From a virus, in IMG/VR virus record IMGVR_UViG_3300044648_000427: 64,000 bases of DNA. One strand, 5' to 3'. This document shows, in pieces, positions 1,225-27,980 of this stretch. The position numbers and the translations under genes were made by a program. The notes below the pieces were generated by a model. That model ran no database searches and was not told where the DNA came from. It was given only the letters and a program-made list of their open reading frames with translations. How positions within the stretch are numbered: the first letter of the stretch is position 1; every line of letters starts with the position of its first letter.

Positions 1225-1225
1225 T

Positions 1226-1836: not shown

Positions 1837-1838
1837 AC

Positions 1839-2534: not shown

Positions 2535-2582
2535 ACTAACATATAAAAAAGCTTTATAAGTAATCATAAATAATATTTTTGT

Positions 2583-3631: not shown

Positions 3632-3858
3632 TTGGATTTTCGCCCTTCGAATATATGATTTTTCGCTACAAGCTCTCTGAGACTTAGTAGTACTGATTCT
3701 AACCTTTCAATATGTCCTGCAAGGTTATCTATATCGTGGTCATCTTGATCTTCGTAGTCTACATCGTTCCATTCATCCAACTCCTTATTCATTTTATCTA
3801 AGTCTTTATTCCATTCATCTATTTTTTGGCTTAAAGCCTTTTGAAGTTCTTCGCACAT
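3628..3858 (-). CDS. acidic coiled-coil protein
   Basis: ORF track; leaderless promoter upstream. Confidence 0.6.
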   Translation of the reverse strand: MCEELQKALSQKIDEWNKDLDKMNKELDEWNDVDYEDQDDHDIDNLAGHIERLESVLLSLRELVAKNHIFEGRKSK

Positions 3859-3892
3859 GTATGTATGTATGTAAGAGCTTTATATATAGTTT
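3859..3892 (-). promoter_or_regulatory. (ATAC)n-class promoter
   Basis: Minus strand AAACTATATATAAAGCTCTTACATACATACATAC-ATG. Confidence 0.7.
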
Positions 3893-3942
3893 AGGATAAG
3901 AAGAACAAATAAAATTAAAATGAGTAAACGTAATTGGTGATA

Positions 3943-3980
3943 GCGTAGCTGCGGTAATAGCGGTTGTAGCGGACTGGCGG
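3943..3980 (+). repeat. phased GCGG array, locus 1
   Basis: GCGT 3943; GCGG 3951, 3960, 3969, 3977. Confidence 0.75.
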
Positions 3981-4584
3981 AAATGTAATTATTGTAATAA
4001 TTATATAAATCAAATCAATTAATAGATATTATATATTCTATTCATCTATAATTAATATTTTCCATAAATAAAAATAATTTTTTTTGTAAATTTATTTTTC
4101 GCCCTTCCAACTTCCAAAATATTTTTTGTAGTGAATAAAAATATTTTTTCAAAAAAAAATTTTTTTTTATTTTTAAATTTTTCAAATTTTTTTTTCCTCT
4201 CAAGAATTTTTTTCTCAAGAACTTTTTTTTTCACAATATTTTAATTTTTTAAATTTTAAGCTTCAAGGCTACTCTCACAATCTTCAAGAAGATTCCTCCA
4301 GAAGATTGATAGAGAATATTGTTCTATAACATAACTACGTAACATTGTTACGTAATCTAACTATATAACAATATGTTGAATACTATAAGATAAGCTAAGT
4401 GCCAAATCATGAATAAGGAAATTAACAATTCTTATAGTATTCAACATGTAAGATATTATGTTAAATCTATATATAAATGTCTAATTTTATGTATATACAC
4501 GATTTAAATTACATAATGTCATACATATGACAATTTGTAAAGTGATCAGATACATTTATATTACCAACTAACGATCCTAATCTT

Positions 4585-4770
4585 ATGCTAAATCATGAGT
4601 TAAAACATAAAATGATCGAACAAATAAATAAAAAAAGATGGACTGGATCGAGAAGATCACAAAGTTTTGTATACCTATTAGACAATTTACAAAATTTGAA
4701 TAGTGGGATTATTTCAGCAAAAGAAATAATTCAAAATGCTGAAACAATAAGAAACGGAGAAAAAATTTAA
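4585..4770 (+). CDS. hypothetical protein
   Basis: ORF track; TATA-like element upstream. Confidence 0.5.
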   Translation: MLNHELKHKMIEQINKKRWTGSRRSQSFVYLLDNLQNLNSGIISAKEIIQNAETIRNGEKI

Positions 4771-5019
4771 ATGAACAACTTAAACGATTTAAAAAATTCG
4801 TTAGCTGACTTAAATGCAGAAATGAATTTAAATATTTTTAATTCAGATATCGATAAATCACTTTGTTCAATTTGTCGAGAAATTGGACAAACTACCGATA
4901 AAATTGTTCAATATAAAAGATGTGAAAAGCATAAAAATACACATTTTTGCAATTTGTGCCGATCACTAGTTACACATAGTTTTATCTGTATTAGTTGTTT
5001 GTCTAAGGATATGATTTAA
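4771..5019 (+). CDS. RING-like Zn-finger protein
   Basis: C-x2-C-x15-C-x2-H-x3-H-x-C-x2-C-x9-C-x2-C. Confidence 0.5.
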   Translation: MNNLNDLKNSLADLNAEMNLNIFNSDIDKSLCSICREIGQTTDKIVQYKRCEKHKNTHFCNLCRSLVTHSFICISCLSKDMI

Positions 5020-5240
5020 ATGAAAAAATTAAGTCAATTACTTAAACAACTTTACAATTTTTATAATTGTGATTGTTGTAAAAGTTTTAAAAATTGAGGT
5101 GATGATCTTTGATAGTTAAAAAAGGCAAAAAACAAAAATTCGTTTTTACTGATGAATATTTGAAATTTATTTTAGCTGATTATTAAGCTAAATTTTTTTT
5201 TAATTAGTTTGTAATAAAAATCTTTTTAAAAATATAAAAA

Positions 5241-12036: not shown

Positions 12037-12235
12037 TCTTAGAGAAGAAATATATGAATATTTAGGTAATGATAAAATCACTACTGATGAAATAATATCA
12101 AAGATTGAAAAAAGAATAGATTCAATAATCCATGCAAAAGTCTCAAAATCTCATGTAGACCAATACAGTTGGGAGTCTCGTAATATTGATGAAATAGTTG
12201 GACTGTTGAGAGAAGTTAAGGAGATATTAAAATGA
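12029..12235 (+). CDS. SLREEI-family protein
   Basis: NSLREEI...IEKRID...EVKEILK. Confidence 0.7.
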   Translation: MNSLREEIYEYLGNDKITTDEIISKIEKRIDSIIHAKVSKSHVDQYSWESRNIDEIVGLLREVKEILK

Positions 12236-12324
12236 ATATACCTGTATTCTATTACATTAATGGAGTTATAACAGGAATATCATTGATGTTGATATTTTTA
12301 TATTGGAGAGAATATTTAAAATGA
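12232..12324 (+). CDS. 30-aa single-TM peptide
   Basis: Hand translation MNIPVFYYINGVITGISLMLIFLYWREYLK; ATGA at both ends. Confidence 0.55.
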   Translation: MNIPVFYYINGVITGISLMLIFLYWREYLK

Positions 12325-12452
12325 ACCCATTATGTCCAATACATAATATGATGATGGAATTAACAGAGACAAAGGAAAGAGAAAAAACATACCAGTGTTC
12401 TAAATGCGGAATAAACTGTACTACAATAGAAAGGCCATTAAGGGGAGGTTAA
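12321..12452 (+). CDS. 43-aa Zn-finger micro-protein
   Basis: Hand translation MNPLCPIHNMMMELT...YQCSKCGINC... Confidence 0.6.
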   Translation: MNPLCPIHNMMMELTETKEREKTYQCSKCGINCTTIERPLRGG

Positions 12453-12453
12453 A

Positions 12454-12741
12454 ATGAATAATCTTAGAGAAGAAATAGAGGAAATTATAGAGGATATAAT
12501 AATTGACTCAACTGAACTTGGTCTTGAAGGTAAGGTTTATTTCACTCCACCTACAAAATCTAATACAGAAAAGATAATATCATTAATTGAAAAAGAAATA
12601 GATGAAAGAATACAAGAATTAGAACAAGAACGAAAAGAAATACCAACATGGGATTTATCAAAAGAAGAAAAAGACATCCAAGATATCATAAGTGAACATA
12701 GAATAGATGAACTTAAATATGTTAAGGAGATGTTGAAATGA
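12454..12741 (+). CDS. SLREEI-family protein
   Basis: NNLREEI...IEKEID...VKEMLK. Confidence 0.7.
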   Translation: MNNLREEIEEIIEDIIIDSTELGLEGKVYFTPPTKSNTEKIISLIEKEIDERIQELEQERKEIPTWDLSKEEKDIQDIISEHRIDELKYVKEMLK

Positions 12742-12941
12742 AAGAAAAATGCGGCTGTAAATACCACAAAAGGAATATTCAACGATATTACCAAATAGCC
12801 TTAGATGATCCAGAAACAAAAGAGTATGAATATATATGTGACAAACATCTTAGAGAATTTGTATTAAGAGATTTTAATGCACATCAATGGCATTTAACAG
12901 CACAGAAAACGTTCAATAGAGTTAAGGAGATATTAAAATGA
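12738..12941 (+). CDS. CGC...CxxH family micro-protein
   Basis: CGCKY...ICDKHLREFVLRDFN. Confidence 0.65.
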   Translation: MKEKCGCKYHKRNIQRYYQIALDDPETKEYEYICDKHLREFVLRDFNAHQWHLTAQKTFNRVKEILK

Positions 12942-13048
12942 TAGCACGTATAGGAATTTTTGTTTTTGAAGATGATGCATTAGAAGAAATGGAAAATCTT
13001 CTCTCAAGATATATAAAAGCACAAAAATTGTTGGAGGAGCGGAAATGA
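12938..13048 (+). CDS. 36-aa micro-protein
   Basis: Hand translation MIARIGIFVFEDDALEEMENLLSRYIKAQKLLEERK; ATGA at both ends. Confidence 0.55.
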   Translation: MIARIGIFVFEDDALEEMENLLSRYIKAQKLLEERK

Positions 13049-13287
13049 AAGATAAAATTCATAATCTAATAGTTGACTGTAGAGATAGAGTAATGGTCAA
13101 CGGAAAAGTTGAATATACAGAACAATATTATGTTGATAAAATAATAGAATTGATTGAAACACAAATCGATAAAAAAATTCAACATGTTAATAAAGTCCTG
13201 AATGACCCACGGATTACACTACAAGGATACCACAATATGAAGGGCAAAAAAGAGGCGTTTGAAGAAATTAAGGAGTTATTAAAATGA
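13045..13287 (+). CDS. SLREEI-family protein (divergent)
   Basis: IETQIDKKI...EAFEEIKELLK. Confidence 0.65.
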   Translation: MKDKIHNLIVDCRDRVMVNGKVEYTEQYYVDKIIELIETQIDKKIQHVNKVLNDPRITLQGYHNMKGKKEAFEEIKELLK

Positions 13288-13556
13288 GTCTAAGAGATGA
13301 AATAAAAAATGATATAGCAAGACGATATGTTGAAGACGTAAATCAAGAAATGAATCTTTTAGCAGACCATATTTTTTCAAAGATTAAAAAAAGAATAGAT
13401 AAAATGATAAATGATGTAAACCAAGAATTCAAAAATGAAGGCTACGAAGGAATTAAAGATATTTGGATGAATCTTGACGTTGATGATATTGTAGACTATA
13501 AGGAATTACAGGCCGAGAAAAGGGTTTTAGAAGAGGTTAAGGAGTTACTGAAATGA
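13284..13556 (+). CDS. SLREEI-family protein
   Basis: SLRDEI...IKKRID...EEVKELLK. Confidence 0.7.
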   Translation: MSLRDEIKNDIARRYVEDVNQEMNLLADHIFSKIKKRIDKMINDVNQEFKNEGYEGIKDIWMNLDVDDIVDYKELQAEKRVLEEVKELLK

Positions 13557-13831
13557 AAAAAGCTGGCGACCAATTTGCTGTAGTAGCATCAGTAGTATTG
13601 ATATTACTTGTTATGTTTACTCTTGTTGCGTTTATCAACGGTGCGTTTGCTTCAACAAATGAATCTTTATCTGATATAATAAAAGAAGAGTCAGAAGATT
13701 ATGAACAATACAAGGAAAAAACAAAATGGTGGGACGAAGAAGAAGATGAAAAAGAGCATGAATGTGAGTCAGATGAATGGAATGAAGATGATAAGCAGGA
13801 AGAAAAAGCAATGGAGAGGGCAAGAGATTGA
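13553..13831 (+). CDS. membrane-anchored acidic protein
   Basis: N-terminal TM helix, Glu/Asp-rich tail. Confidence 0.6.
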   Translation: MKKAGDQFAVVASVVLILLVMFTLVAFINGAFASTNESLSDIIKEESEDYEQYKEKTKWWDEEEDEKEHECESDEWNEDDKQEEKAMERARD

Positions 13832-14046
13832 CTATTAGTCTTAGGGAAGAAATGTTAAATTTACTTATGGAGCAAGATACAGAAGGCACAGACATCAAAA
13901 TGCTTCGAAATAATCTAGATGAAATTATTGCAAAGATTGAAAAAAGAATAGATGAATTTATCACAGAAGACAGAAAACGTCCATATGCAGAACAGGATGA
14001 GGTTATCGCTGCAATAGAAGACTTGAAAAAGGAGATATTAAAATGA
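13828..14046 (+). CDS. SLREEI-family protein
   Basis: SLREEM...IEKRID...PYAEQDEVI...KEILK. Confidence 0.7.
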   Translation: MTISLREEMLNLLMEQDTEGTDIKMLRNNLDEIIAKIEKRIDEFITEDRKRPYAEQDEVIAAIEDLKKEILK

Positions 14047-14264
14047 ATAGTCTTAGGGAAGAAATCAAAGAGATATTAATTAAAGATGGTTATAAAGGTA
14101 ATCAAGAATATTATCTGTCTGATGATGAATTAGTAGGATTAATAATCTCAGAGATTGACAGAAGAATAGATAAATTTATAATAAAAGAAAGGAAACTTCC
14201 ATATGCTGAACAAGATGAGGTTATTTCCGGAATAGAAGAGTTGAGAAAGGAGCTATTAGAATGA
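14043..14264 (+). CDS. SLREEI-family protein, tandem duplicate of previous gene
   Basis: Shares PYAEQDEVI and a near-identical 3' DNA segment. Confidence 0.7.
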   Translation: MNSLREEIKEILIKDGYKGNQEYYLSDDELVGLIISEIDRRIDKFIIKERKLPYAEQDEVISGIEELRKELLE

Positions 14265-14437
14265 TTGATGTAAAAGGCTGTGGATGCAGATACAGAGAAA
14301 TAAATGATTCGACGTTTACTAACTGTGAACATTTATGCGAGAACCACGAGAAAGAGTTTATATTACGGTTGTTCAATTGGCAACACGGGCTGAAACAAGA
14401 AAAGGAAGTTGGAGGAGGTTATATTAGTATTGATTAG
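14261..14437 (+). CDS. CGC...CxxH family micro-protein (58 aa)
   Basis: Hand translation MIDVKGCGCRY...LCENHEKEFILRLFN; paralogue of 12738. Confidence 0.65.
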   Translation: MIDVKGCGCRYREINDSTFTNCEHLCENHEKEFILRLFNWQHGLKQEKEVGGGYISID

Positions 14438-14691
14438 TGAAAGTGAAGAATATAATGATTACGATCCGGAATGGGATGATGGAGATGACTGAAATGACAG
14501 ACTGTGAAGACTGTGAATATTATTTCAATACCAGAGACGCCTTTGTTCACGTATATATCGGTGACGTTAAAGTAATAATAATAGCATGCCCGAAACACAG
14601 AGAGGAAGCATATCAGAATCTAAAAGACTTGAGAAAAACAAAAGAAGAGAATGACCAACTGAAATTAGCATTAAAGGAGCTGTTAAAATGA
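14437..14691 (+). CDS. Zn-finger protein
   Basis: CEDC...CPKH; ends in a class A repeat. Confidence 0.55.
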   Translation: MKVKNIMITIRNGMMEMTEMTDCEDCEYYFNTRDAFVHVYIGDVKVIIIACPKHREEAYQNLKDLRKTKEENDQLKLALKELLK

Positions 14692-14825
14692 AAGTACTGA
14701 TCTGCGATTACTGCAACAAATCGATCCAAGAGGAAAACTATATATGTGATTGTACATCAGAAGACATTGTGAAATATTTTCATCATACAAATTACAAGGA
14801 TTGTTGGTGGAGGGTTAAATGCTAA
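14688..14825 (+). CDS. 45-aa Zn-finger micro-protein
   Basis: Hand translation MKVLICDYCNKSIQEENYICDC...HH...C. Confidence 0.55.
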   Translation: MKVLICDYCNKSIQEENYICDCTSEDIVKYFHHTNYKDCWWRVKC

Positions 14826-15256
14826 TCACTTGCCTAAATATAAATAAAAAAAGGATATTTAGTGAAGAACATAAAAAAAAATTAAGTGAAGCAGCAAAAG
14901 GAAGAAAACATTCTGAAAAAACACTGAAAAAGATGAGTGAATCTCATAAGGGGCATATCCTTTCTGAAGAAGGTAAAAAGAAAGTAAGTGAATCTAAAAA
15001 AGGAAATAAAAATCCGATGTGGAAAGAAAATATAACCTACTACTCTTTACATGAATGGATTAGAAATAACCTACCTAAATCAAAATTATGTCAACTTTGT
15101 AAGTTAGTTCCACCATATGATTGTGTTAATATAACAGGTATCTATAATAGAGACTTCAAAAACTGGTTGAGAGGATGTAGAAAATGTCATATGATTTCTG
15201 ATGGAAGATTAGACAACTTACATGAAAGAAAAAAAAAGAGGATTAATATCTTATGA
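14819..15256 (+). CDS. NUMOD3-repeat homing endonuclease-like protein
   Basis: FSEEHKKKLSE / HSEKTLKKMSE / LSEEGKKKVSE repeats, NPMWK, LHEWIR...CxxC...CxxCH. Confidence 0.7.
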   Translation: MLITCLNINKKRIFSEEHKKKLSEAAKGRKHSEKTLKKMSESHKGHILSEEGKKKVSESKKGNKNPMWKENITYYSLHEWIRNNLPKSKLCQLCKLVPPYDCVNITGIYNRDFKNWLRGCRKCHMISDGRLDNLHERKKKRINIL

Positions 15257-15405
15257 ATATAACATGCCCCCATTGCAAAAAGCGGCCCAACGCACAGGGG
15301 CCATTTCCGGCTGCGTTTTGGACGGAAATAACGTGTGAGTACTGCAAAGGAGTATTTGATTACAGATTAGGCGAGATAAGGCCAAGAGAAAATGAAATTC
15401 AATAA
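15253..15405 (+). CDS. 50-aa Zn-ribbon micro-protein
   Basis: Hand translation MNITCPHCKK...ITCEYCKGVF. Confidence 0.6.
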   Translation: MNITCPHCKKRPNAQGPFPAAFWTEITCEYCKGVFDYRLGEIRPRENEIQ

Positions 15406-15610
15406 AGATTTAGATTATATGATGAATGCAACAAGAAAAGATTATTGTTGTATGGATTTAATGAGGTGTGGATGGATAGAGCTTGATTTTTATGGAAAAA
15501 GGATTGTTTTAGCTACTGATTCAGGTGATGGAACATACACTTCGTTTGGATCTGAGTCAAAGAGCGGCGTGAAATTCTGCCCGTTTTGTGGAGAGAAGAT
15601 AGAGAAATGA
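15392..15610 (+). CDS. Zn-binding protein
   Basis: YCC...KFCPFCGEKI. Confidence 0.6.
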   Translation: MKFNKDLDYMMNATRKDYCCMDLMRCGWIELDFYGKRIVLATDSGDGTYTSFGSESKSGVKFCPFCGEKIEK

Positions 15611-15849
15611 AAGATATTAGCCCTTATGAAAATATGTCTGAAGAACAACTTAAAGAATTAGCCGATAAAAAAGCACAAGAAGCTTGGGATAACCTTGGTT
15701 TTGGAGGTAAACCAAAATTCCTGTGTATACATTGTTATAAACCATGTGAATATGATGAACTTAATAATAATATTGAGTGTAAGAAATGCGACCTTAATTG
15801 GACATTAGAGTCAATGAAAAAAGATTGTGAAAGGATGTTAGAAGAATGA
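15607..15849 (+). CDS. Zn-finger protein
   Basis: CIHC...CKKC; start moved to the coupled ATG 15607. Confidence 0.6.
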   Translation: MKDISPYENMSEEQLKELADKKAQEAWDNLGFGGKPKFLCIHCYKPCEYDELNNNIECKKCDLNWTLESMKKDCERMLEE

Positions 15850-15983
15850 AATGTTCTAAATGTAAACAAGAATTTTCAATTAACATTCCTGACAATCATA
15901 CTATTTTAAGAATGAAAAATATAAGAATGATAACTTGGGTTTGTAATCGTTGTAATATTGAAAATAGGGAGTATGTAAGATGA
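15846..15983 (+). CDS. 45-aa Zn-finger micro-protein
   Basis: Hand translation MKCSKCKQEF...WVCNRCNIEN. Confidence 0.6.
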   Translation: MKCSKCKQEFSINIPDNHTILRMKNIRMITWVCNRCNIENREYVR

Positions 15984-16066
15984 AGTGTAAACATAAACAT
16001 ATTTTCGGAGGTTTTGCTTATGGTTCAAATGATATACATACTTGTTCTTGTTGTTTAGATGGATAA
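15980..16066 (+). CDS. 28-aa Cys/His micro-protein
   Basis: Hand translation MKCKHKHIFGGFAYGSNDIHTCSCCLDG. Confidence 0.45.
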   Translation: MKCKHKHIFGGFAYGSNDIHTCSCCLDG

Positions 16067-16069
16067 AAA

Positions 16070-16168
16070 ATGAGATGCCCAATTTGCGAAAGAGCTCATA
16101 GAGGAAATATGCCTAATTACTTATGCCAGTGTTTTTGTCATAAAACTATGGGAGTAGAATTAATTTGA
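16070..16168 (+). CDS. 32-aa Cys/His micro-protein
   Basis: Hand translation MRCPICERAHRGNMPNYLCQCFCHKT; preceded by GATAAAAAATG. Confidence 0.55.
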   Translation: MRCPICERAHRGNMPNYLCQCFCHKTMGVELI

Positions 16169-16527
16169 CCTGCCCTAGTTGCGACAGCCCGTATGGTTTA
16201 TATGTATCTCATAGAAAGAAAGATGCAATGAACTTGTACAAGTTATCATGTAAAGACTGTAATTTTATTACTAATCAATGGATTGATGAAAGTAATCCAG
16301 ATAGTTGTATGTTGTTTTATAGTTTTGGTATTAACCCATATGATGAATGGGGGCCTGATGAATACCCAGAACGCTTTAAGGATGGAAATTTTTCAACAGA
16401 GGAAGAAATGGAAAAATTTGAAGCATCATATGAGGTAATATTGGTTGAAGACAGACCTCAATGGAAAAATTATAACGACGAATTTTATTATATTGAAGAA
16501 CAAGACTTTAAATATCGGCCCGTGTAA
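16165..16527 (+). CDS. Zn-ribbon acidic protein
   Basis: CPSC...CKDC. Confidence 0.6.
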   Translation: MTCPSCDSPYGLYVSHRKKDAMNLYKLSCKDCNFITNQWIDESNPDSCMLFYSFGINPYDEWGPDEYPERFKDGNFSTEEEMEKFEASYEVILVEDRPQWKNYNDEFYYIEEQDFKYRPV

Positions 16528-16535
16528 ATAACATT

Positions 16536-16778
16536 ATGGAACACTGTAGTAGATGCGGTCGAATAGATAGTGAGCCTTCAGGTTTTATAATGGAAGAAAA
16601 ATTTCCAGAAAATGAAATCAAGTTCGGCGGAATATGCAAGTGGTGTATGACGCCCGATGATTCATACAAGGAAATTCCTCAAGAAGAAAGAGATTTCGGA
16701 GGGTGGTTCATGGATATGAGAACGGATGATGAGAGGACTTGGTTTATTAGGAAAAGGATAGAGTTATATGGGAGTTAG
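16536..16778 (+). CDS. Zn-finger protein
   Basis: CSRC...CKWC. Confidence 0.6.
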   Translation: MEHCSRCGRIDSEPSGFIMEEKFPENEIKFGGICKWCMTPDDSYKEIPQEERDFGGWFMDMRTDDERTWFIRKRIELYGS

Positions 16779-16811
16779 AAATCATAGATATTAAAGGAAT
16801 AAAGATAAAAA

Positions 16812-16967
16812 ATGAAAATATTCATACCATGTAAATATTGTAAAGGTGGATATAGAGAAGGCGATGAAGAAAAAAAACAAGAACATGAAATATTATGTAA
16901 ACAACGTCACGAATGGATAATAAAGAGAAGAACAGAAGAATTGGGAGAGAAAGAAGATAAAAAATGA
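16812..16967 (+). CDS. cassette micro-protein B1 (51 aa, CxxC...HxxxC)
   Basis: Hand translation MKIFIPCKYCKGGY...HEILCKQRH. Confidence 0.7.
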   Translation: MKIFIPCKYCKGGYREGDEEKKQEHEILCKQRHEWIIKRRTEELGEKEDKK

Positions 16968-17119
16968 AATCTAATCTTGATTATATATTGGGCTTTCTAA
17001 ATCTTTTAAATGAATATGCTCTTGAACCGAATAAGAATCTAACAAAAGACGATATTAAATTAAAGAGACGAGTTATTAAACATATTAAATTATTCTATAT
17101 AGAGGAAGATAAAAAATGA
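16964..17119 (+). CDS. cassette micro-protein B2 (51 aa, helical)
   Basis: Hand translation MKSNLDYILGFLNLLNEY... Confidence 0.65.
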   Translation: MKSNLDYILGFLNLLNEYALEPNKNLTKDDIKLKRRVIKHIKLFYIEEDKK

Positions 17120-17292
17120 ATAATGAGTTAGAGATTAAAGTAGTTAGAGATAATGATGAGTTTAAGGTTTGTAATATATGTGATAATGAAATAACTAGAA
17201 CAGGAGATTACTATCTTGATATGCCTAAAGAAGTTAAGACAATATGTATAGATTGCGTAGAAAAAATAAATAAAGTATTTAGTGAATGGTAA
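17116..17292 (+). CDS. cassette micro-protein B3 (58 aa, C4 Zn finger)
   Basis: VCNICDN...ICIDCVEKI. Confidence 0.7.
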   Translation: MNNELEIKVVRDNDEFKVCNICDNEITRTGDYYLDMPKEVKTICIDCVEKINKVFSEW

Positions 17293-17301
17293 AGATAAAA
17301 A

Positions 17302-17466
17302 ATGAAACGTCAGAAAAGAAGGTGTGTTTATTGTGCAACCTATTTTACAACCATAACAGGTAGGCTATCTTGTATACAATGTTCACAAAAGTCTAATGAA
17401 GAACGTGATAGAATATTCAATGAAAGAGTTGAGTTCCTTAGGAGTGAGGAGAAAGATAAAAAATGA
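17302..17466 (+). CDS. cassette micro-protein B4 (54 aa, C4 Zn finger)
   Basis: RCVYCAT...SCIQCSQ. Confidence 0.7.
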   Translation: MKRQKRRCVYCATYFTTITGRLSCIQCSQKSNEERDRIFNERVEFLRSEEKDKK

Positions 17467-17642
17467 AATGTCTATTATGTGAGTCTGGAAATATCGATAG
17501 CAGTGACTTTCAAACAGTAGGAGATTTAGTAAAGCATTTAATTACTCATGATATACATAACTTGGCTTTTGCATATGCTGATATGTTATTTATCCTTGAA
17601 GAAAGGAGAATAAGAAAAGAGGAGAAAGATAAAAAACTATGA
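17463..17642 (+). CDS. cassette micro-protein B5 (59 aa, C2H2-like)
   Basis: MKCLLCES...DLVKHLITH. Confidence 0.7.
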   Translation: MKCLLCESGNIDSSDFQTVGDLVKHLITHDIHNLAFAYADMLFILEERRIRKEEKDKKL

Positions 17643-17734
17643 AATGTTGGAAGTGTGGAAAGAAGAACATGATAGACTTAGGAGATGGAAGAAATCTATA
17701 TTGTGGTGCATGTGAAACCCATATAGCAACATGA
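17639..17734 (+). CDS. cassette micro-protein B6 (31 aa, C4)
   Basis: MKCWKCGKKNMIDLGDGRNLYCGACETHIAT. Confidence 0.65.
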   Translation: MKCWKCGKKNMIDLGDGRNLYCGACETHIAT

Positions 17735-17750
17735 GGAAAGAGGATAAAAA

Positions 17751-17897
17751 ATGATCTGTCTATATTGTAATACTGAAATCCTTGATAAGGAATTTTCATA
17801 TATCAAGGTAGGAGATAGTAGACCTAAATCTTGTTATCATAAAGATTGTTTTTGGCTTAAATATGATATAAAGGATAAAGAGAAAGATGAAAAATGA
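17751..17897 (+). CDS. cassette micro-protein B7 (48 aa, CxxC...HxxC)
   Basis: MICLYCNTEI...CYHKDCFW. Confidence 0.7.
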   Translation: MICLYCNTEILDKEFSYIKVGDSRPKSCYHKDCFWLKYDIKDKEKDEK

Positions 17898-18016
17898 CTT
17901 TAGAAGGAACACATCTATGTATTAATTGTTATTTGGAAATCAAAACACCGATTAGATTGAAATATTGTCCAAGATGTAAGAAAGAAACGGATAAATATTT
18001 AGCAACAAGTCATTAA
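17894..18016 (+). CDS. cassette micro-protein B8 (40 aa, C4)
   Basis: LCINCY...YCPRCKK. Confidence 0.65.
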   Translation: MTLEGTHLCINCYLEIKTPIRLKYCPRCKKETDKYLATSH

Positions 18017-18031
18017 GGAGAAAGATAAAAA

Positions 18032-18181
18032 ATGAAATGTGGTAAATGTAATAATGATTTAAAACTACAAATAGATATGCTTTGGGAAGGTAGGACATCA
18101 GAGGGATTTTATTATTGTTCTAATTGTAACTATAGAAAATCAACAGGTATATGGGAACATCCTCAAGAAGAGTTATTTTAA
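18032..18181 (+). CDS. cassette micro-protein B9 (49 aa, C4)
   Basis: MKCGKCNN...YYCSNCNY. Confidence 0.7.
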   Translation: MKCGKCNNDLKLQIDMLWEGRTSEGFYYCSNCNYRKSTGIWEHPQEELF

Positions 18182-18196
18182 GGAGAAAGATAAAAA

Positions 18197-18289
18197 ATGA
18201 AATGCTCATTTTGTAATGATTCTGATGCTGACTTGATGTGGAACGGACATTATTATATTTGTAAGGATTGTGAAAATGAACAATCTTAA
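18197..18289 (+). CDS. cassette micro-protein B10 (30 aa, C4)
   Basis: MKCSFCNDSDADLMWNGHYYICKDCENEQS. Confidence 0.65.
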   Translation: MKCSFCNDSDADLMWNGHYYICKDCENEQS

Positions 18290-18419
18290 CACCTGTGCCT
18301 TTTGTAATAAAAGAATATGGTTCTTTCAGAAAAACATATATAGACTAGTCGGCCCGGATGATATAGGGAAATTTATAGGTCGTCATTTTCATGAGAAGTG
18401 TGTGAGAGAGAAAAAATGA
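18276..18419 (+). CDS. 47-aa CxxC...HxxC micro-protein
   Basis: CAFCNKRIWFFQK...FHEKC; paralogue at 52289. Confidence 0.65.
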   Translation: MNNLNTCAFCNKRIWFFQKNIYRLVGPDDIGKFIGRHFHEKCVREKK

Positions 18420-18529
18420 ACCTGAAAAATTTATGCCACATAGATATTCATACTTGGGCCGAAGGCTCTGATGGGCATGTCTGTTATTACTGCGGCCTGA
18501 AATTAAAGAGTTTATCACACAAACTTTAA
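18416..18529 (+). CDS. 37-aa Cys/His micro-protein
   Basis: LCHIDIHTW...VCYYCG. Confidence 0.6.
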   Translation: MNLKNLCHIDIHTWAEGSDGHVCYYCGLKLKSLSHKL

Positions 18530-18694
18530 TAATTACAAATTTTATTTTACTTTGTTGAATAGCGAAGAATTCTGTAATAGTTGTTTCCATCATTATAGTT
18601 TTCACCGAATGGGTGTAGGTCATTGTGAGAAGATATTAGTACCAGTAGTTACGAATTTCGCCCGTATAGATTGCGTTATTCCGTGTAGGTGTAA

Positions 18695-18952
18695 GTGCGT
18701 AAACTTCAAGAGGTAGATCTTTTATGTTGTTTTTTCGCCCGTCATCATATGTTAAATTCCACCGGAACTCATTATACAATAGAGATTCAATTAGGCCGCT
18801 ATTCCGAAAGCCTCGATTTGCTGGCCAAACTTGATTTGTTAGAGGCCAATTACGCCGCTGCGGTCGATGATGCCGCTAGAATCGTTATACAGAAACAGAT
18901 GTTGGATATTTATCGTCAATTGATAAACATTTTTCTGCTAGAAAGAAATTAA
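18695..18952 (+). CDS. hypothetical protein
   Basis: ORF track; GTG start, atypically GC-rich codons. Confidence 0.35.
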   Translation: MRKLQEVDLLCCFFARHHMLNSTGTHYTIEIQLGRYSESLDLLAKLDLLEANYAAAVDDAARIVIQKQMLDIYRQLINIFLLERN

Positions 18953-19051
18953 AATAACGTTTTTCGGCCCGTAATATCGGCCCTCGAAATTAAATTTTTC
19001 GTCATTCATGCGTTAGTTCTTCTTATATACGATTAACGTAATTTCGCCTTT

Positions 19052-19576
19052 ATGGGTGAAGCGGGAAGACCGACGGCAATTAGTCGTGAAGAAACACTTT
19101 ATAAAATACGTTCGATGAGAATTGAGGGCTTTAATAAACAGCAAATTATTAAGCAATTAGGTATGAGTCCGAATACTTATGATGATTATTTAAATATTAT
19201 TTATGTACAAGACGCTGAGACATTAAGTAAAAAGCGGGAACAGGCGTTAGCTACTGATGTAGAACTATACAAGAATAGGTTGGAAAAGGCTCTTCGTAAC
19301 CTTAATTACCTTTTCGGAGATGCGACAGCTACGGCTAAGGAGAAAGTCGAAATAATAAAAGCTAGCGTTGAGATTGCTGGTAAACTTATGCGTGTGGACT
19401 CTGAGGGAACTGCACTTTTAGAACTTAAGCCCGAATTGCGTCAGATGATTGAGGACGCTAATAGCTTAGTGAGGAACAAAATTGAGATAAACACTTACAA
19501 CATTGGGGAGTTACCTGAAAAAGGAGCTGGCAAGACAATTAAGCTTCAGAAAAAAGATGAAGATCTTTTTGGTTAG
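19052..19576 (+). CDS. terS: probable terminase small subunit
   Basis: GRPT followed by N-terminal HTH, helical body, upstream of terL. Confidence 0.55.
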   Translation: MGEAGRPTAISREETLYKIRSMRIEGFNKQQIIKQLGMSPNTYDDYLNIIYVQDAETLSKKREQALATDVELYKNRLEKALRNLNYLFGDATATAKEKVEIIKASVEIAGKLMRVDSEGTALLELKPELRQMIEDANSLVRNKIEINTYNIGELPEKGAGKTIKLQKKDEDLFG

Positions 19577-19665
19577 ACCAAAAAATTTGGGTAGGCGAAA
19601 AATCGTTTTCCCCTTATAATCCCCTTTCAAAGAAGTCTACCACTGTGGGGGATGTGTTCGTTTTA

Positions 19666-19731
19666 GCGGCGAAGCCGCAAGCGGAAATTGCGGTAGCTGC
19701 GGTAGCAGCGGAAATTACCGTTGAGTAGCGG
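19666..19731 (+). repeat. phased GCGG array, locus 4
   Basis: GCGG at 19666, 19681, 19690, 19699, 19708, 19728. Confidence 0.75.
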
Positions 19732-19732
19732 A

Positions 19733-19800
19733 TGATCAACCATTGAACCTACGGTTCATCCGCTGAGCAAAGTGCGTAGCACGATGCTCAACGTTGATCA
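19733..19800. other. three-way junction / cruciform-forming element
   Basis: TGATCAAC/GTTGATCA encloses TGAACC-TAC-GGTTCA and TGAGCA..GTGC-GTA-GCAC..TGCTCA. Confidence 0.7.
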
Positions 19801-20716: not shown

Positions 20717-22369
20717 GTGCCCGAAGAATTCATTATCCCTGAATTAGGTAGAACCCTTAAAGAGAAAAAACAAGAAAAAACAAGAAATGATGCAAGTATT
20801 CTTAAGGGAAAGCCGTTTTGGATTTGGGATAAGAAGGAGCACAAGAAAAAATATAAAGAATTAAATGGTGAATGTTGTTTTAATCATATTGCAGGATTAC
20901 CTGTAAAAAATGGACGAGCAAGACCAATTTATCCATTTCAGAAGCAGATTTATGATCTTACCATGTCGAAGGTAGAAGAGGCAAGAATGTCTGATGAAGA
21001 GCTAGAGAAACTTCATGGAAAGGATTATATAAGACGTTTAGGGGTGTGGATTGAAAAAGCCACTGGTTTGGGGGTAAGTGAATTTTATTTACGTCTTATG
21101 GGATGGTTATGTGTTTATGATGATTATTATAAAGGTTCAGATTTTTGTATTGTAACAGGGCCAAATATTAAGTTAGCTTCAGACCTTATTGATAGATTTA
21201 AGGATGTTTTCTATGAAAATTTGAAATTTAGATTTGATGATAGTAAGTTTGAGGCTACTGTAAATGATGTGCATATTGAAGCTTTTCCTTCCGATAACTT
21301 ATCTGCTCTTAGAGGTCGTCCTGATGTAAAATTTATTCTTCTAGATGAAGCAGATTTCTTTTCTATAGGATCACAAAAACAAGTACGTGCTATAGCAGAA
21401 CGTTACATTGGAAAAAGTAATTCTATCGTAGTTATGGTAAGTACGCCAAATGCTGATACTCCTGATGGACTTTATACAGAAATGAAAGCAGAATTTGATG
21501 AAGCAAGGAAGCGTGGAACTTTACAATCTATTCTTTATGATCCCTTAGAACTTCCCTACACTGTAGGATTAGGAACAATGTTTAGTGAAGCTGAAATGGC
21601 TCAGGCTAAACTTTCACCGTCATTTGAGACTGAGTATAACCTCCAAAGGGGTTTCGGACTTGGTAATTTGTTTATGCCTGAAACAATCAAAAAAATGATC
21701 GATTTGGGTGAAAAACTTGGTGAAGAAAAAATCAATGTAAATAATACTTACGTTGCAGCTCCTAACACATTTGAACTTGTAATGGATTTAAATTCAATGT
21801 ATGCAAAATCCGATATAAAATATGATAAACCATTATTTGTTCCTAAAATTGGCTCTACACGAGTTATGGGTATAGACGGTGCGTTCGGTTCAAGTAAATT
21901 CGCTATTTGCGTGGTGGAATTAGTCCAATTTGAGGGAGAACCGGTGGTAAAAGTACTATATAGTGACGAATTCGAGCGTATTGACTACGATAATGCGTTG
22001 ACTAGATGCGAAAATCTCATAAAATTCTATGGTATTAAACGTGTTTATATTGATTCTGCTAACCCTGAAGTTGTAGGTGGAATCAGAAAGATCTACGGCG
22101 AACAACATGATTGGACATTAGATCGTAGACTACCTTCTAGGTGGTCTGGATTTCCAGTTTCGTTTAATAAGGAAGGCCGCCCCTTATTAGCTAAACTTCA
22201 ACGTATGGGTGAAATGGGTAATTTAGCGGTAAGTCCATATTTTAAGAATTTACTAGTTTATCTAAGAATTGCTCAACATCAATCTTATAACTTGGAGAAA
22301 GTTGGGAAGACGCAACTCGACGAACTTGATGCGTTAAGGTTGGCTTTAAAACACTTTACATTTAGTTAA
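20717..22369 (+). CDS. terL: terminase large subunit
   Basis: KATGLGVSEF Walker A variant, ILLDEADF Walker B, VSTPN, RNase H-like MGID and C-terminal DELDA. Confidence 0.85.
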   Translation: MPEEFIIPELGRTLKEKKQEKTRNDASILKGKPFWIWDKKEHKKKYKELNGECCFNHIAGLPVKNGRARPIYPFQKQIYDLTMSKVEEARMSDEELEKLHGKDYIRRLGVWIEKATGLGVSEFYLRLMGWLCVYDDYYKGSDFCIVTGPNIKLASDLIDRFKDVFYENLKFRFDDSKFEATVNDVHIEAFPSDNLSALRGRPDVKFILLDEADFFSIGSQKQVRAIAERYIGKSNSIVVMVSTPNADTPDGLYTEMKAEFDEARKRGTLQSILYDPLELPYTVGLGTMFSEAEMAQAKLSPSFETEYNLQRGFGLGNLFMPETIKKMIDLGEKLGEEKINVNNTYVAAPNTFELVMDLNSMYAKSDIKYDKPLFVPKIGSTRVMGIDGAFGSSKFAICVVELVQFEGEPVVKVLYSDEFERIDYDNALTRCENLIKFYGIKRVYIDSANPEVVGGIRKIYGEQHDWTLDRRLPSRWSGFPVSFNKEGRPLLAKLQRMGEMGNLAVSPYFKNLLVYLRIAQHQSYNLEKVGKTQLDELDALRLALKHFTFS

Positions 22370-25660: not shown

Positions 25661-27193
25661 CTACTCCAAGCTATTAATTTTCCTTTCCGTTCTAATCTCT
25701 GATTTAAGTCTTTCTAATTGGTATTCATTCATATCGGCAAATTTGATAAATTGTGAAAGAAATTTACTTCTATTTTTTACTTCTTTGAACATTTTTTGAC
25801 AAATAATTCTATACTCTGGATTACCCTGTGGTATGGTTCTTAATTCAATAATATGAGCAAGTTCACGGAAATTACAGAATATTTGATAACGATAATTGAA
25901 GGCAAAATTCAAGCAATATGGTGCTAATTGTGGTAATCTATTATAAATATGCTTATATATTTTGATGGAATTTTCCATCAGATCACAAAATTCAACATCT
26001 AAACCCAGTTTTTTAATTTCTGGAGGTATGTAAAATCCAATATGAGGATTAAATTCAGTCCTATGGAAGGTCAATAATCGATGTCTGTGTAAATCTCTAT
26101 AAACTGCATAACTTGAAACTATTTCGAACCTCCACATAGAGTTTTCAAATACTCTAGGTAAATTATGTCGTCTGTTCTGTCTGAGATTGGACATTATTTG
26201 AGATAAGAGTTTACGTCTTTGGTTAATACTAAGACTTAATAACCATGTTCGGATGGAATCAAATGAAAGACCCTTATCATTTACTTCATAAAAGATGTTG
26301 GTAAGAATATTAATTTCAGAAATAAGTTGGACATCACTTTCTAAACATTTTACATAATTTTCGTATATATCAGGCTGATTAATTTCTTTAATTTCTCCGA
26401 AATCTAAATGTCTTGTTAAATGAGATTTTCTTCTAGAATTATAATTTATCAGATAATTTTGATATGATTGACCATGAGGGGAATCTATACGTGAAAGGAG
26501 TGGCCCGATTGTAGAACTTAATTCCTTTTGTATTTTACTACCCAATCTTTTTACTTCAGGAATGTTCGAAGCTTTCATCTTCAAAATTAAATGCTCAAAA
26601 TAACGTCCGGTTCCGTTTATTGCAACATTAGTCAATATACTTGATGGTAAAATTCCTCTGACAATATCAAGAGTTTTAGCTTTAATGGTTGAATTATAAA
26701 CAGCTTTAGTATTTTTTACTCCTTCATAGTTTAAACTTTCTTCTGGAAACTGTTCACGTAAGTAGGAATCAACTTTTTCTGACATTTCATTATAAGTTTT
26801 TATAGAATTATTACAATGTTCAATATAAATATCAGTTAAATCCCCTAATTGTTCAGGAACGTAAAACTTATCAAAAGTTACGTATCTTGAAGATCGTTCG
26901 AGATATGAAGCACCTGTTCTAGAATCTTCTATGAATTGAGCTGCAATATTAGATATATCTTCAATTGCTATTTGAGTTGAACATAATTCCGCAATTGAAT
27001 CATCGCCAAAGTTTGCGAATACTTTTTTGTAAAACTCTTCTCCTCTATTTGGATTATTTTCGAATTCATCATGATAAATTTGTCTCATACTTTTAGTTGA
27101 ACGGGAGTATCTAGACATCAAAGCTCCACGGTCAACTTCATTTGGTATTTTTATTACAAAAACATTAGAATTTTCATTACTGAATGGTTCCAT
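25661..27193 (-). CDS. thyX: FAD-dependent thymidylate synthase (long two-domain type)
   Basis: SRYSR, FGDDSIAEL, YLERSSRY, RDLHRHR, NFRELAHIIELR. Confidence 0.9.
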   Translation of the reverse strand: MEPFSNENSNVFVIKIPNEVDRGALMSRYSRSTKSMRQIYHDEFENNPNRGEEFYKKVFANFGDDSIAELCSTQIAIEDISNIAAQFIEDSRTGASYLERSSRYVTFDKFYVPEQLGDLTDIYIEHCNNSIKTYNEMSEKVDSYLREQFPEESLNYEGVKNTKAVYNSTIKAKTLDIVRGILPSSILTNVAINGTGRYFEHLILKMKASNIPEVKRLGSKIQKELSSTIGPLLSRIDSPHGQSYQNYLINYNSRRKSHLTRHLDFGEIKEINQPDIYENYVKCLESDVQLISEINILTNIFYEVNDKGLSFDSIRTWLLSLSINQRRKLLSQIMSNLRQNRRHNLPRVFENSMWRFEIVSSYAVYRDLHRHRLLTFHRTEFNPHIGFYIPPEIKKLGLDVEFCDLMENSIKIYKHIYNRLPQLAPYCLNFAFNYRYQIFCNFRELAHIIELRTIPQGNPEYRIICQKMFKEVKNRSKFLSQFIKFADMNEYQLERLKSEIRTERKINSLE

Positions 27194-27980
27194 CTATATT
27201 ATTAATATGTTTCGTTGATATAAACTTTTGGTTTTCATGGGGGCATTTACCATAAATTCCTTTTGCCATATTACAATTACTACATAGTATTTGGTAGCCG
27301 TCAGGAAAATTATTTTGTTGTAACCAATTAAAAAAATGTTTTCTTTCAGACTTTAATTTCTTTCTATGTTCTCTTCCATGTCCATCAAGATGATCAATTT
27401 CTAAAAATTCTAATTCATTTTCACCACAACATTTACAAAATGGAATTGAACTTTTTGAATAGTATTTTGTTATTTTTATTTTATCCCTCTTATAATACTC
27501 CCTTTTTTGTATTTGTTTCTTTGTGAGTATTTCTGAAGTGACTTGTATCATTCTATGATGTATACAACATTGGTTTTTCCCTTTGGAACGGTTGCAGGAA
27601 TTACAAAGAATTTGATAACCTTCAGGAAACCCATTTTTAATTAAATAGAGGTAGATATACCCTTTAAAAGTTTTTCTATGTTCTGCTCCATTACCATTTA
27701 TATGATCTATACATAGGAATTCTTTTTGAGTTATTTTACAACAATTGCATCGTGGATATAAAGTATCACTATAATAAAGTAATACTAAATCTCTTATATT
27801 CTTTCTATATTCCCTCTTATGCTTATTTATTTCTTCCTTGTGGTTATTATGATAACCTTTTTTTTGTAATAAAACCATTTCTTTATTATTTTTATAATAT
27901 TCTTTATTATGATTATAAAAATATTCTTTATGATTATTATAATATTTCTTATTATAATTGGGATCTTTTGTAACCAACAA
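27177..27980 (-). CDS. HNH endonuclease with two tandem HNH domains
   Basis: IDHINGNGAEHR...GYQILCNSCN and IDHLDGHGREHR...GYQILCSNCN. Confidence 0.8.
   Translation of the reverse strand: MLVTKDPNYNKKYYNNHKEYFYNHNKEYYKNNKEMVLLQKKGYHNNHKEEINKHKREYRKNIRDLVLLYYSDTLYPRCNCCKITQKEFLCIDHINGNGAEHRKTFKGYIYLYLIKNGFPEGYQILCNSCNRSKGKNQCCIHHRMIQVTSEILTKKQIQKREYYKRDKIKITKYYSKSSIPFCKCCGENELEFLEIDHLDGHGREHRKKLKSERKHFFNWLQQNNFPDGYQILCSNCNMAKGIYGKCPHENQKFISTKHINNIDGTIQ

Follow-up and report, generated by a model that had tools for sequence, protein, structure and literature searches.

In a 64-kb stretch of viral DNA (the window), about 20 very small genes follow one another on the + strand, and one short word recurs at the start of gene after gene. 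Does this repeat serve translation, does it mark points at which genes are exchanged between viruses, or did it spread by duplication together with the genes? The anatomy of the junctions, together with blocks of homology between genomes that end in them, leads us to read the locus as a 3.3-kb polycistron of micro-genes, whose junction would be both a translational coupling signal and a recombination patch (probability about two in three). The block precedes the terminase genes of a tailed virus from soil, the host of which is probably one of the ammonia-oxidising archaea (Nitrososphaeria).

Extent and content of the micro-gene block

The 11-nt word GATAAAAAATG occurs in nine exact copies in the 64-kb window, all on the + strand and all within 16062-18199 (mean in shuffled sequences 0.36, maximum 3). 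A sequence-only reading of the locus had described a repeat-spacer array at 16804-18204 with ten copies at spacings of 152, 152, 186, 161, 173, 115, 143, 138 and 165 bp. Copies and spacings were reproduced in that range, with eight copies exact, one carrying a single mismatch and one a 3-nt insertion. The long identities between copies were likewise recovered (27 nt between those near 18013 and 18178, 25 nt with that at 17447), as were five ATGA stop/start overlaps (16964, 17116, 17463, 17639 and 17894), one ORF of 30-59 aa per interval, and at least one CxxC in each of nine of the ten ORFs. The range itself was too short: further copies lie at 16062 (exact) and 18408 (one mismatch), and the run of micro-ORFs extends over 15253-18529. 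The block and the junction copies are listed with the basis of each entry in brackets.

15253..18529, + strand, micro-gene block, about 20 co-directional ORFs of 28-99 aa (ORF layout)
16062..16072, + strand, exact junction before B05 (11-mer count)
16804..16814, + strand, exact junction, start of B08 (11-mer count)
16956..16966, + strand, exact junction, ATGA overlap of B08 stop and B09 start (ORF layout)
17108..17118, + strand, exact junction, ATGA overlap of B09 and B10 (ORF layout)
17294..17304, + strand, exact junction 3' of the B10 TAA stop, start of B11 (ORF layout)
17455..17465, + strand, exact junction, ATGA overlap of B11 and B12, GAGGAG just before (ORF layout)
17628..17641, + strand, variant junction GATAAAAAACTATG with the 3-nt insertion, ATGA overlap of B12 and B13 (ORF layout)
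17743..17753, + strand, exact junction, start of B14, in the form GAGGATAAAAA (11-mer count)
17886..17896, + strand, one-mismatch junction GATGAAAAATG, ATGA overlap of B14 and B15 (left-hand boundary of the homology to a different soil element, contig L288)
18024..18034, + strand, exact junction 3' of the B15 TAA stop, start of B16 (right-hand boundary of the homology to L288)
18189..18199, + strand, exact junction 3' of the B16 TAA stop, start of B17 (11-mer count)
18408..18418, + strand, degenerate junction GAGAAAAAATG, ATGA overlap of B18 and B19 (ORF layout)

ATGA overlaps make up 9 of the 19 junctions of the whole block, and the remaining junctions are mostly gaps of 3-16 nt. ORFs cover 95% of the + strand of the block (mean in shuffled sequences 15%, maximum 39%), and the best codon likelihood falls in the proposed frame for all 20 of 20 ORFs. 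Measured against homologues, pN/pS was 0.17 for B15 and 0.08 for B05. From these values, and from the homologue and the zinc-ribbon model of B16 described below, we conclude that, on sequence criteria, the micro-ORFs of the block are real genes. The micro-genes referred to in the text are as follows.

15846..15983, + strand, B03, 45 aa, two CxxC, MKCxKC subfamily (paralogue scoring)
16070..16168, + strand, B05, 32 aa, Cys-rich (shared with L288)
16812..16967, + strand, B08, 51 aa, CxxC..C..H, tail ..EKEDKK (ORF layout; variant P0134)
16964..17119, + strand, B09, 51 aa, no Cys, tail ..EEDKK (ORF layout)
17116..17292, + strand, B10, 58 aa, two CxxC (ORF layout)
17302..17466, + strand, B11, 54 aa, two CxxC, tail ..SEEKDKK (ORF layout)
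17463..17642, + strand, B12, 59 aa, CxxC...HxxxH (ORF layout)
17639..17734, + strand, B13, 31 aa, two CxxC, MKCxKC subfamily (paralogue scoring)
17751..17897, + strand, B14, 48 aa, CxxC and CxxxxC, tail ..KEKDEK (ORF layout)
17894..18016, + strand, B15, 40 aa, two CxxC, cassette common to another element (L288 comparison)
18032..18181, + strand, B16, 49-aa predicted zinc ribbon (AlphaFold model)
18197..18289, + strand, B17, 30 aa, adjacent paralogue of B16 (z 8.4, alignment)

The block encodes mostly stand-alone zinc ribbons, whose zinc binding is predicted. The AlphaFold model of B16 (pLDDT 87.7, three strands) has the two CxxC knuckles and three-stranded sheet of the zinc ribbon fold, which B16 is thus predicted to adopt. 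Its closest PDB structures were NrdR and Rpb9-type ribbons, all weak matches (Foldseek, none below E 0.01). A homologue of B16 (P0132, 46%) lies within a different run of small genes, L143; the match of B16 to a 1248-aa repeat protein (P0131) was judged spurious. Pfam and PHROGs searches of the micro-proteins gave nothing above cut-off, B12 had no homologue besides itself, with only unnamed clusters returned by the Atlas, and the exact B11 protein was found on six contigs with identical neighbours.

The view that the ORFs are otherwise unrelated proved wrong for several of them. B16 and B17 are paralogues: they form the most similar pair, are adjacent, and also share the longest junction identity. 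B03, B13, B16 and B17 together constitute one MKCxKC...CxxC subfamily. A z above 3 was obtained for 5% of micro-protein pairs, and most other pairs score via the Cys pattern only; B09 shows no similarity to the neighbouring cassettes. The members of the array next door (class A) are clearly paralogues and have a different junction of their own. In the relative L002 another small-gene family occupies the corresponding place. A paralogue of B18 is found at 52277-52456, where there is no junction.

Tandem duplication and divergence might account for the whole block. One ancestral zinc-ribbon gene would have been amplified with its start context, the junction would have stayed constant as the sole translation signal, and cassettes shared with other genomes would be vertical remnants of an old array. 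The paralogy of B16 with B17 and within the MKCxKC subfamily is as this account predicts, and so is a neighbouring class A family with its own junction. Against it stand B09, which lacks Cys and is unlike its neighbours, and a B18 paralogue that has no junction.

Junction anatomy and translation

In the junction, a purine-rich SD-like stretch (GGAG or GAGG) is followed by GATAAAAA and then by ATG(A). It is A-rich with an A-run, holds stops in two frames (TAA within GATAA and TGA within ATGA), and contributes the start codon of the next gene. Conservation is limited to about -15 to +5 around the ATG, with a background identity of 0.30 elsewhere. An SD-like site had been assigned to every repeat; this holds for most junctions, but GGAG is missing from several copies, and the 11 nt that separate GGAG from the ATG are more than a classical SD usually has. 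The junction serves in some genes as the coding C-terminus (..EEKDKK-stop) and in others follows a TAA stop, so what is conserved is the DNA or RNA and not the peptide. Single variants convert between forms of stop. Run X7 has 5 nt inserted after 16056, which turns the upstream TAA-type stop into the ..DKK-stop/ATGA type, and in variant P0142 of the 18189 junction the TAA is lost and the protein ends at the second stop of the junction (..ELFLGER-stop).

No inverted repeat, dyad or hairpin was found at the junctions, and junction RNA folded no better than shuffles, indicating that it is unstructured. No conserved TATA/BRE was found at the distance expected of a promoter, identity being at background from -45 to -16; a sigma-70 scan gave no enrichment, and the one terminator-like site in 8 kb lies away from the junctions. 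Across the window, 67 ORFs reach 90 aa, and only 7 of them have GGAG or GAGG 3-14 nt before the start. Six of these seven abut the preceding ORF (the check covered six, all but 876-1229 on the - strand), and by their overlap with it or few-nt gap to it the six look operon-internal. In many of the remaining window ORFs a TATA-like box lies about 25 nt upstream of the ATG, and most other genes of the genome look leaderless.

Most simply, the primary role of the repeat would be translational, the provision of a stop, an SD and a start within a polycistron. Any incoming gene would be terminated by the junction and translation would then restart, through termination-reinitiation or through internal initiation led by the SD. 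Coupled overlapping gene pairs with ATGA or TGATG have been described (Huber et al., 2019; PMC6728339). The micro-genes resemble such pairs in being co-directional, with a 4-nt stop/start overlap or tiny gaps, and in having an SD-like motif in the upstream gene. To our knowledge, ordinary coupled pairs do not carry a near-identical junction of 11-27 nt across ten or more successive genes, and we know of no case in which they serve as exchange points.

The exact 11-mer is conserved beyond the needs of a generic initiation signal. It might therefore be an RNA address, read by a translational repressor or processing nuclease that regulates this class of genes, with recombination incidental. The logic would be comparable to that of T4 RegA and RegB. 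Besides its exactness, the position of the word over the start codon, its lack of structure and its class specificity (the class B word of the present array differs from that of class A) are in line with such an address. No candidate regulator emerged, however, and nothing in the data demands one. We consider this account quite unlikely; it is compatible with a junction that couples translation and serves as a recombination patch.

The A-run suggests another alternative, in which a -1 slip before UGA would fuse neighbours into multi-ribbon proteins, the micro-genes being their domains. At ATGA junctions the downstream frame is indeed -1, with an A6 run immediately before the stop, and in L288 a genomic A7 has the corresponding effect: the counterpart of B05 is fused in frame to the upstream cassette via an A7 junction, giving one 80-aa protein. 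This genomic fusion suggests that fused products are tolerated, and a one-base change in the A-run would be enough to fuse neighbouring genes. Slippage as the function of the junction is nevertheless highly improbable: ATG is kept at every junction and the SD-like stretch at most, half of the junctions have an in-frame TAA before the A-run, so that a slip cannot fuse the frames, and the class A junction has only an A4 run.

Cassettes shared between genomes

The soil element to which L288 belongs is represented by 14 contigs from different JGI samples (L287-L296, about 99% alike), and L288-type contigs carry six GATAAAAA[A/G]TG junctions in 1.1 kb. L288 5595-5751 corresponds to window 17882-18035, the B15 block, at 89.8% nucleotide identity from junction to junction, both ends of the homology falling in junctions. 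The protein P0141, found on 14 JGI contigs, belongs to the 90%-identity protein cluster of B15 and differs from it at 5 of 40 residues. B05 is 91% identical in nucleotides to L288 5470-5546, the right end of this homology lying inside the ORF and not in a junction, and B03 has a homologue at L288 5051-5206 (36% aa). Window and L288 agree in the relative order of B03, B05 and B15. About 13 kb of L288-type flanks had no similarity to the window. An apparent polymorphism of 44 against 53 aa among L287-L296 was traced to a gene-calling difference (GTG start), the sequence being unchanged.

An analogous junction was found in a distant pair of viruses, G001 and G002, and its core is matched by the form GAGGATAAAAA at 17743; the core GATAAAAA is common to three lineages. 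The backbones of G001 and G002 are 73.3% identical, and seven cassettes are common to both at 91-98.5% identity (pN/pS 0.15), at three different loci and in changed order, two lying in inverted orientation. Of the seven blocks, six end at most 21 nt from a gene start, and the seventh (G001 12268-12428) ends just within its own ORF. No cassette protein was common to the window and to G001/G002 beyond the Cys pattern.

Vertical descent of an old array would explain why the order of B03, B05 and B15 is preserved in L288, and duplication only is consistent also with the fixed order in all copies of the virus (see below). It accounts poorly for cassettes of about 90% nucleotide identity beside flanks without detectable similarity, and for cassettes of 91-98.5% identity on a 73% backbone that have changed array and strand. 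Duplication as the sole process is therefore unlikely. For the window and L288, it is possible that an old common array had its intervening cassettes replaced.

Exchange, addition and deletion of cassettes at the junctions had been proposed, and the comparisons between genomes bear this out; among near-identical copies of the virus the order is fixed. Cassette order was identical in six independent assemblies, no cassette polymorphism was seen among near-identical copies in contigs, and contigs of four soil runs contained no recombinant joints at junctions. Exchange in this lineage must then be slow compared with point mutation, unless rare variants were lost from the contigs. One candidate joint (16264>20300) was taken as spurious, with a 21-nt side in one contig. 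Loose ends were seen at 17262 in runs X8 and X9, and some bins of X9 had no cover. A 108-nt deletion in L285 has its breakpoints outside junctions. Each of the arrangements (that of the virus, the L288 type, and that of G001/G002) recurs across independent assemblies and is thus not an assembly artefact. The contigs examined from close relatives, recognised by TerL (83-64% identity) or by a 174-aa protein, are too short to include the array.

Further relatives were sought more widely. Among cultured phage records, blastn retrieved nothing that matched 15300-19600. In IMG/VR, neither the 174-aa protein nor TerL, each as a single query, led to a relative, and a 22-nt junction pattern was absent. 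A metagenome scan with a 19-mer gave, among the matches listed, single chance-like ones only. A two-copy junction pattern in genome_contigs and viral_contigs retrieved no micro-gene array, the matches being isolated pairs or tandem repeats of short period.

Sharp homology blocks from junction to junction, the inversion in G002 of two G001 cassettes and the presence of the GATAAAAA core in three lineages would also be expected if an unrecognised recombinase acted on the junction, as an integron integrase does on attC. Such a site-specific system is very unlikely. Neither a tyrosine nor a serine recombinase turned up among the scanned window ORFs of at least 200 aa (the source contig has 11.7 kb outside the window), the junction has no dyad or hairpin, and breakpoints occur outside junctions, at the right end of B05 and in the 108-nt deletion of L285. 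Nuclease-like proteins of the virus include one resembling Cas4 (35645-36475) and one resembling endonuclease VII (27177-27980). Under the coupling-and-patch reading, the presence of the same 15-27 nt at each boundary would make the junction a portable homology patch. Junction-bounded genes could then undergo tandem duplication, deletion, and exchange between different viruses, by recombination that would depend on homology or template switching and would not be site-specific.

A broader claim, which we put forward tentatively and short of calling it probable, is that a junction of 15-27 nt in unrelated soil viruses, whose hosts are probably ammonia-oxidising archaea, acts as a socket, kept for mobility as well as translation, in an integrase-free network that exchanges tiny zinc-ribbon effectors.

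Known systems and implications

The closest known kind is the shuffling of T4-type phages by PeSLs (promoter-early stem-loops). In phages phi1 and RB49 these are repeated expression signals that bound small accessory ORFs in a hyperplastic region; they are intergenic and comprise a sigma-70 promoter and a terminator stem-loop, with the SD and the next start codon last, and the ORFs they bound undergo insertion, deletion and replacement between related genomes (Arbiol et al., 2010; PMC2839356). The present array shares with them the SD and start at the 3' end of the junction, a variable region of small ORFans, and repeat-bounded differences between relatives. In contrast, its junction is only 15-27 nt long, often lies within the upstream coding sequence, has no conserved promoter or stem-loop, and appears to act within a polycistron at the level of translation.

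Like integron arrays and CALINs, the block consists of promoterless single-gene cassettes with a repeated boundary site, shared across different replicons. The label integron-like, which the sequence-only reading had used, nevertheless fails on the defining features: Pfam and PHROGs searches showed no integrase among window ORFs of at least 200 aa, there is no attI and no attC-type imperfect inverted repeat or hairpin, and breakpoints lie partly outside the repeat. Nor is it a repeat-spacer array of the CRISPR type, in which non-coding repeats of 23-50 nt alternate with short, unique, likewise non-coding spacers: here the repeat core measures 11-27 nt, and the supposed spacers are 115-186 nt of coding sequence under purifying selection. 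The haloviruses HF1 and HF2, which had been named as a precedent for shuffling, have intergenic, promoter-bearing repeats of 58 and 29 bp, for which these papers show no crossover role (PMC8707807, PMC7230728). They resemble the present junctions as AT-rich signals that recur between genes, in their case those of a tailed virus of archaea, and they are conserved across their virus group.

Annotation mostly misses micro-proteins under 60 aa; here about 20 such genes lie together and their movement can be read from sequence. The locus suggests a search rule for viral metagenomes, namely many ORF starts that carry one exact word. Its products are candidate host-interaction proteins for viruses of soil nitrifiers, viruses that cannot yet be grown, and they may bind nucleic acid or the transcription machinery early in infection; in view of the predicted fold of B16, the first candidate partners would be RNA polymerase and its factors. 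The array would carry the PeSL idea beyond T4-type phages, to another mechanism and to viruses that are probably archaeal, in which a translation signal with no promoter, hairpin or recombinase can bound modular exchange. If the junction is indeed such a socket, any micro-gene placed between two of them would be expressed at once and could be passed on, copied or fused.

Micro-genes and the junction between them

The junction word GATAAAAAATG, a short repeat between micro-genes, occurs in the window in nine exact copies (0.36 expected), all on the + strand at 16062–18199. The ten repeat copies described in the sequence-only reading, made up of exact copies, a one-mismatch copy at 17886 and a copy at 17628 with three extra bases, were reproduced from the window sequence together with their spacings. 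Its further counts were recovered as well: every interval holds one ORF of 30–59 aa, ATGA stop/start overlaps occur at five junctions, and nine of the ten ORFs contain CxxC. The run extends beyond the range reported there, to ~20 head-to-tail ORFs on one strand at 15253–18529 (class B; ORFs numbered with the prefix B). ORFs cover 95% of the run (shuffles: mean 15%, maximum 39%), and when codon usage was taken from the long viral genes the own frame scored best in 20/20 ORFs, a score that is partly circular because stops are absent from open frames.

As far as can be judged from sequence, the micro-ORFs are genes. B15 and B05 have homologues at ~90% nucleotide identity in another element (soil contigs L287–L296), with pN/pS of 0.17 and 0.08, respectively, and with 12 synonymous differences in 35 sites and 7 non-synonymous differences in 157 sites when the two are pooled. 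A full-length homologue of B16 (46%) lies in another run of small genes, and B16 is confidently predicted to form a three-stranded zinc ribbon (pLDDT 87.7); the solved folds closest to the model are NrdR and Rpb9/TFIIS-type ribbons, all with weak scores. Pfam and PHROG searches of the micro-proteins returned no family at threshold. The ORFs had been called otherwise unrelated, which is wrong for several of them: B16 and B17, neighbours with the longest common junction identity, are paralogous and the most similar pair (z 8.4), and B03, B13, B16 and B17 form a subfamily.

Aligned on the ATG, the junctions showed pairwise identity of 0.75–0.91 at −10 to +4 and 0.47 at −15 to −11; outside −15 to +4, identity fell to the compositional background of 0.30. 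At five junctions the last residues of the upstream protein (..EEKDKK) are encoded by the word, the frame ending at the TGA of ATGA; at others the upstream gene ends at a TAA directly 5' of GGAG. Since the word is thus translated in some junctions and untranslated in others, its conservation is that of nucleic acid and not of peptide. Stops stand in two of its frames (TAA in GATAA, TGA in ATGA), and the TAA of GATAA is in frame with the start codon. Three natural variants indicate that these stops work in practice. In one soil run carrying the virus (X7), a 5-nt insertion after 16056 switches the upstream stop from the TAA type to the ATGA type. A B16 variant without its TAA terminates three codons on, at the TAA of the junction itself. 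At 5361–5603 of L288, one of the contigs of the other element, the junction has A7 instead of A6, which fuses a 38-aa cassette in frame with the homologue of B05; the product has 80 aa and two ribbons linked by ..KRKDKK-MKC...

Dyad symmetry was looked for in the junction and none was found, and junction folding was no better than that of shuffles. GGAG or GAGG stands 5' of the start in only 7/67 window ORFs of at least 90 aa, and six of the seven abut the ORF before them. Most simply read, the junction would give a polycistronic mRNA the stop/SD/start signal of its internal cistrons, in line with the termination-reinitiation coupling demonstrated for ATGA gene pairs in archaea and bacteria (PMC6728339).

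The virus, its probable host and further small-gene arrays

The window belongs to a 75.7-kb Logan contig of soil-metagenome origin. Its genes, among them those for terminase, portal, polymerase, ThyX, TnpB and M4 protease, mark it as a tailed dsDNA virus. The main features are as follows.

12232–14825, + strand: class A array, 13 small coupled genes, junction AAGGAGATATTAAAATGA, tails ..KE(L/I)LK
20717–22369: large terminase (TerL)
29942–33490: family B DNA polymerase with intein
33861–35465: portal protein
51340–53286, + strand: third block of small coupled genes, ordinary SD contexts, no common junction word

Four indications make a member of Nitrososphaeria the probable host. A Nitrososphaeraceae MAG contig is found among the more distant TerL relatives, its TerL gene lying beside an integrase; throughout the window, many ORFs of at least 90 aa have a TATA-like box ~25 nt 5' of the ATG and no SD, as is usual for leaderless archaeal genes; a relative encodes an eRF1 domain; and all data sets with the virus are soil metagenomes. 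The eRF1 domain-2 protein is encoded by the relative L002 (6714–7319), a Ku protein by the relative L140 (16767–17552) and a NAPRTase by both, accessory genes that are out of the ordinary for tailed viruses. Array proteins are also on record (cluster table) on a 165,070-nt JGI contig, more than twice the size of the Logan contig, for which a larger genome, a concatemer and an integrated copy are all conceivable.

Class A contains several clear paralogues, among them a recent tandem pair (13852–14046 and 14043–14264, ~82% nucleotide identity). The third block holds a class A paralogue at 51724–51978 (tail ..RDELLE) and, at 52277–52456, a paralogue of B18. L002 (66% TerL identity) has an array of its own (14–5218, minus strand) in the corresponding place, 5' of its homologue of the 174-aa gene that follows the class B array. 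It comprises ~19 tandem paralogues of 30–128 aa with a common C-terminal ..CGVKP..LYKYLWGWE domain; it lies on the opposite strand to the window array and has a higher GC content. In the window, ~520 nt without ORFs (18530–19051) separate array and 174-aa gene. In an 80%-identical relative, several short contigs (L135, L139 and others) all start 324 nt upstream of this gene, which may mark a genome end or an assembly-breaking repeat.

Cassette order within the virus and between genomes

Four soil runs of different studies yielded contigs that match the window exactly over several junctions apiece, and no rearrangement joint was seen at a repeat. Two NCBI MAG contigs were 100% identical over the parts covered, small indels aside, and the sole differences among same-virus copies were small indels beside junctions. 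In one of the MAG contigs (L285), a clean 108-nt deletion (14040–14147) is the sole departure from the window over 9.7 kb. Its left end lies inside a class A junction, and through it the second paralogue loses its start and the end of the first is shifted; X7 also has small insertions at 14038–14046. Cassette order is therefore stable over a time scale without point mutations.

Through the 90% protein cluster of B15, 14 JGI soil contigs (L287–L296) were reached, which are ~99% alike and come from different samples. Their flanks (~13 kb), which encode a DUF932 protein and a 620-aa metallophosphoesterase, showed no similarity to the 64-kb window, tblastx included; the contigs represent a different element. 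Its array has six copies of GATAAAAA[A/G]TG within 1.1 kb. The B15 cassette of L288 (5595–5751) is 89.8% identical to window 17882–18035, the B05 cassette 91% over 77 nt, and B03 has a 36% amino acid match. Around B15, identity is ~90% over the gene and both of its junctions and roughly at background beyond them, where the adjoining cassettes are different genes. The pair may descend from an old common array whose intervening cassettes were replaced, as the same relative order of the three shared cassettes would suggest; however, two cassettes are only 10% diverged while backbone similarity is absent, which argues for transfer.

A TerL profile search of IMG/VR gave 52 distant relatives, and a scan of these for words common to many ORF starts singled out one further lineage, G002 (59.4 kb, two records, 99.98% identity) and G001 (59.7 kb), both complete according to CheckV. 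Their morphogenesis genes are collinear with those of the window (21–33% amino acid identity). The word GAGGATAAAAAGTAAATGA precedes 15 starts in G002 and 4 in G001, with upstream proteins ending ..EEDKK and genes of 25–66 aa, most with CxxC; the core GAGGATAAAAA is common to this junction and window 17740. Over long matches G001 and G002 are 73.3% identical, whereas seven micro-gene cassettes are at 91–98.5%. Six of the seven cassettes in the single G001 array have high-identity counterparts in G002, at three loci (~38–39 kb, 46 kb and 27 kb, the last inverted), where their order differs and other cassettes are interspersed; the seventh shared cassette (G001 12268–12428, 91.3%) lies outside the array. 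For six of the seven high-identity blocks, both limits lie within 21 nt of a gene start, and one block ends 4–6 nt inside its own ORF. Chimeric assembly is unlikely, since every arrangement recurs in independent assemblies.

Two further features of this pair were noted. A 30-aa hydrophobic cassette (MYEIIWVPA..) occurs twice in G002 (37901–38007 and 46691–46774, the second inverted and 88% identical), and a 706-nt segment (G001 19078–19783, G002 54843–55548; 236-aa ORF in G002) is 95% identical vs 73% elsewhere and could likewise be a gene that is mobile or was exchanged recently.

Probable exchange at the junction and related systems

These alignments show that the junction word bounds high-identity blocks between diverged or unrelated genomes. 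Exchange at the repeat had been proposed beforehand, with gain, loss or reordering of cassettes at repeat breakpoints as its support; the G001/G002 pair bears this out between genomes, but among same-virus copies order is fixed. We infer that exchange runs through the short junction homology itself, which would involve either recombination, be it general or encoded by the virus, or template switching as the DNA is replicated; the window encodes a Cas4-like PD-(D/E)XK nuclease and an endonuclease VII-like protein. A dedicated recombinase is unnecessary on present evidence, since none was found among the window's ORFs of at least 200 aa, the site lacks a dyad and some breakpoints fall outside junctions.

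Among described systems, the PeSLs of T4-type phages (PMC2839356) come nearest, likewise a repeated expression signal that bounds small accessory genes, with shuffling between relatives; PeSLs, however, are intergenic, with a promoter and a terminator hairpin. The earlier label 'integron-like' is a loose analogy, as the cassette logic is in common but the defining parts of integrons are absent. HF1/HF2 intergenic repeats are promoters (PMC8707807), and neither this source nor PMC7230728 describes a crossover role for them. A 2025 survey of Nitrososphaeria viruses mentions neither zinc proteins, nor paralogues, nor such gene cassettes, its sole 'cassette' being CRISPR-Cas. That arrays A and B each have a class-specific word suggests conservation beyond a generic initiation signal, and besides translation, the exact junction word might be kept for the mobility of the genes or for reading by a regulator.
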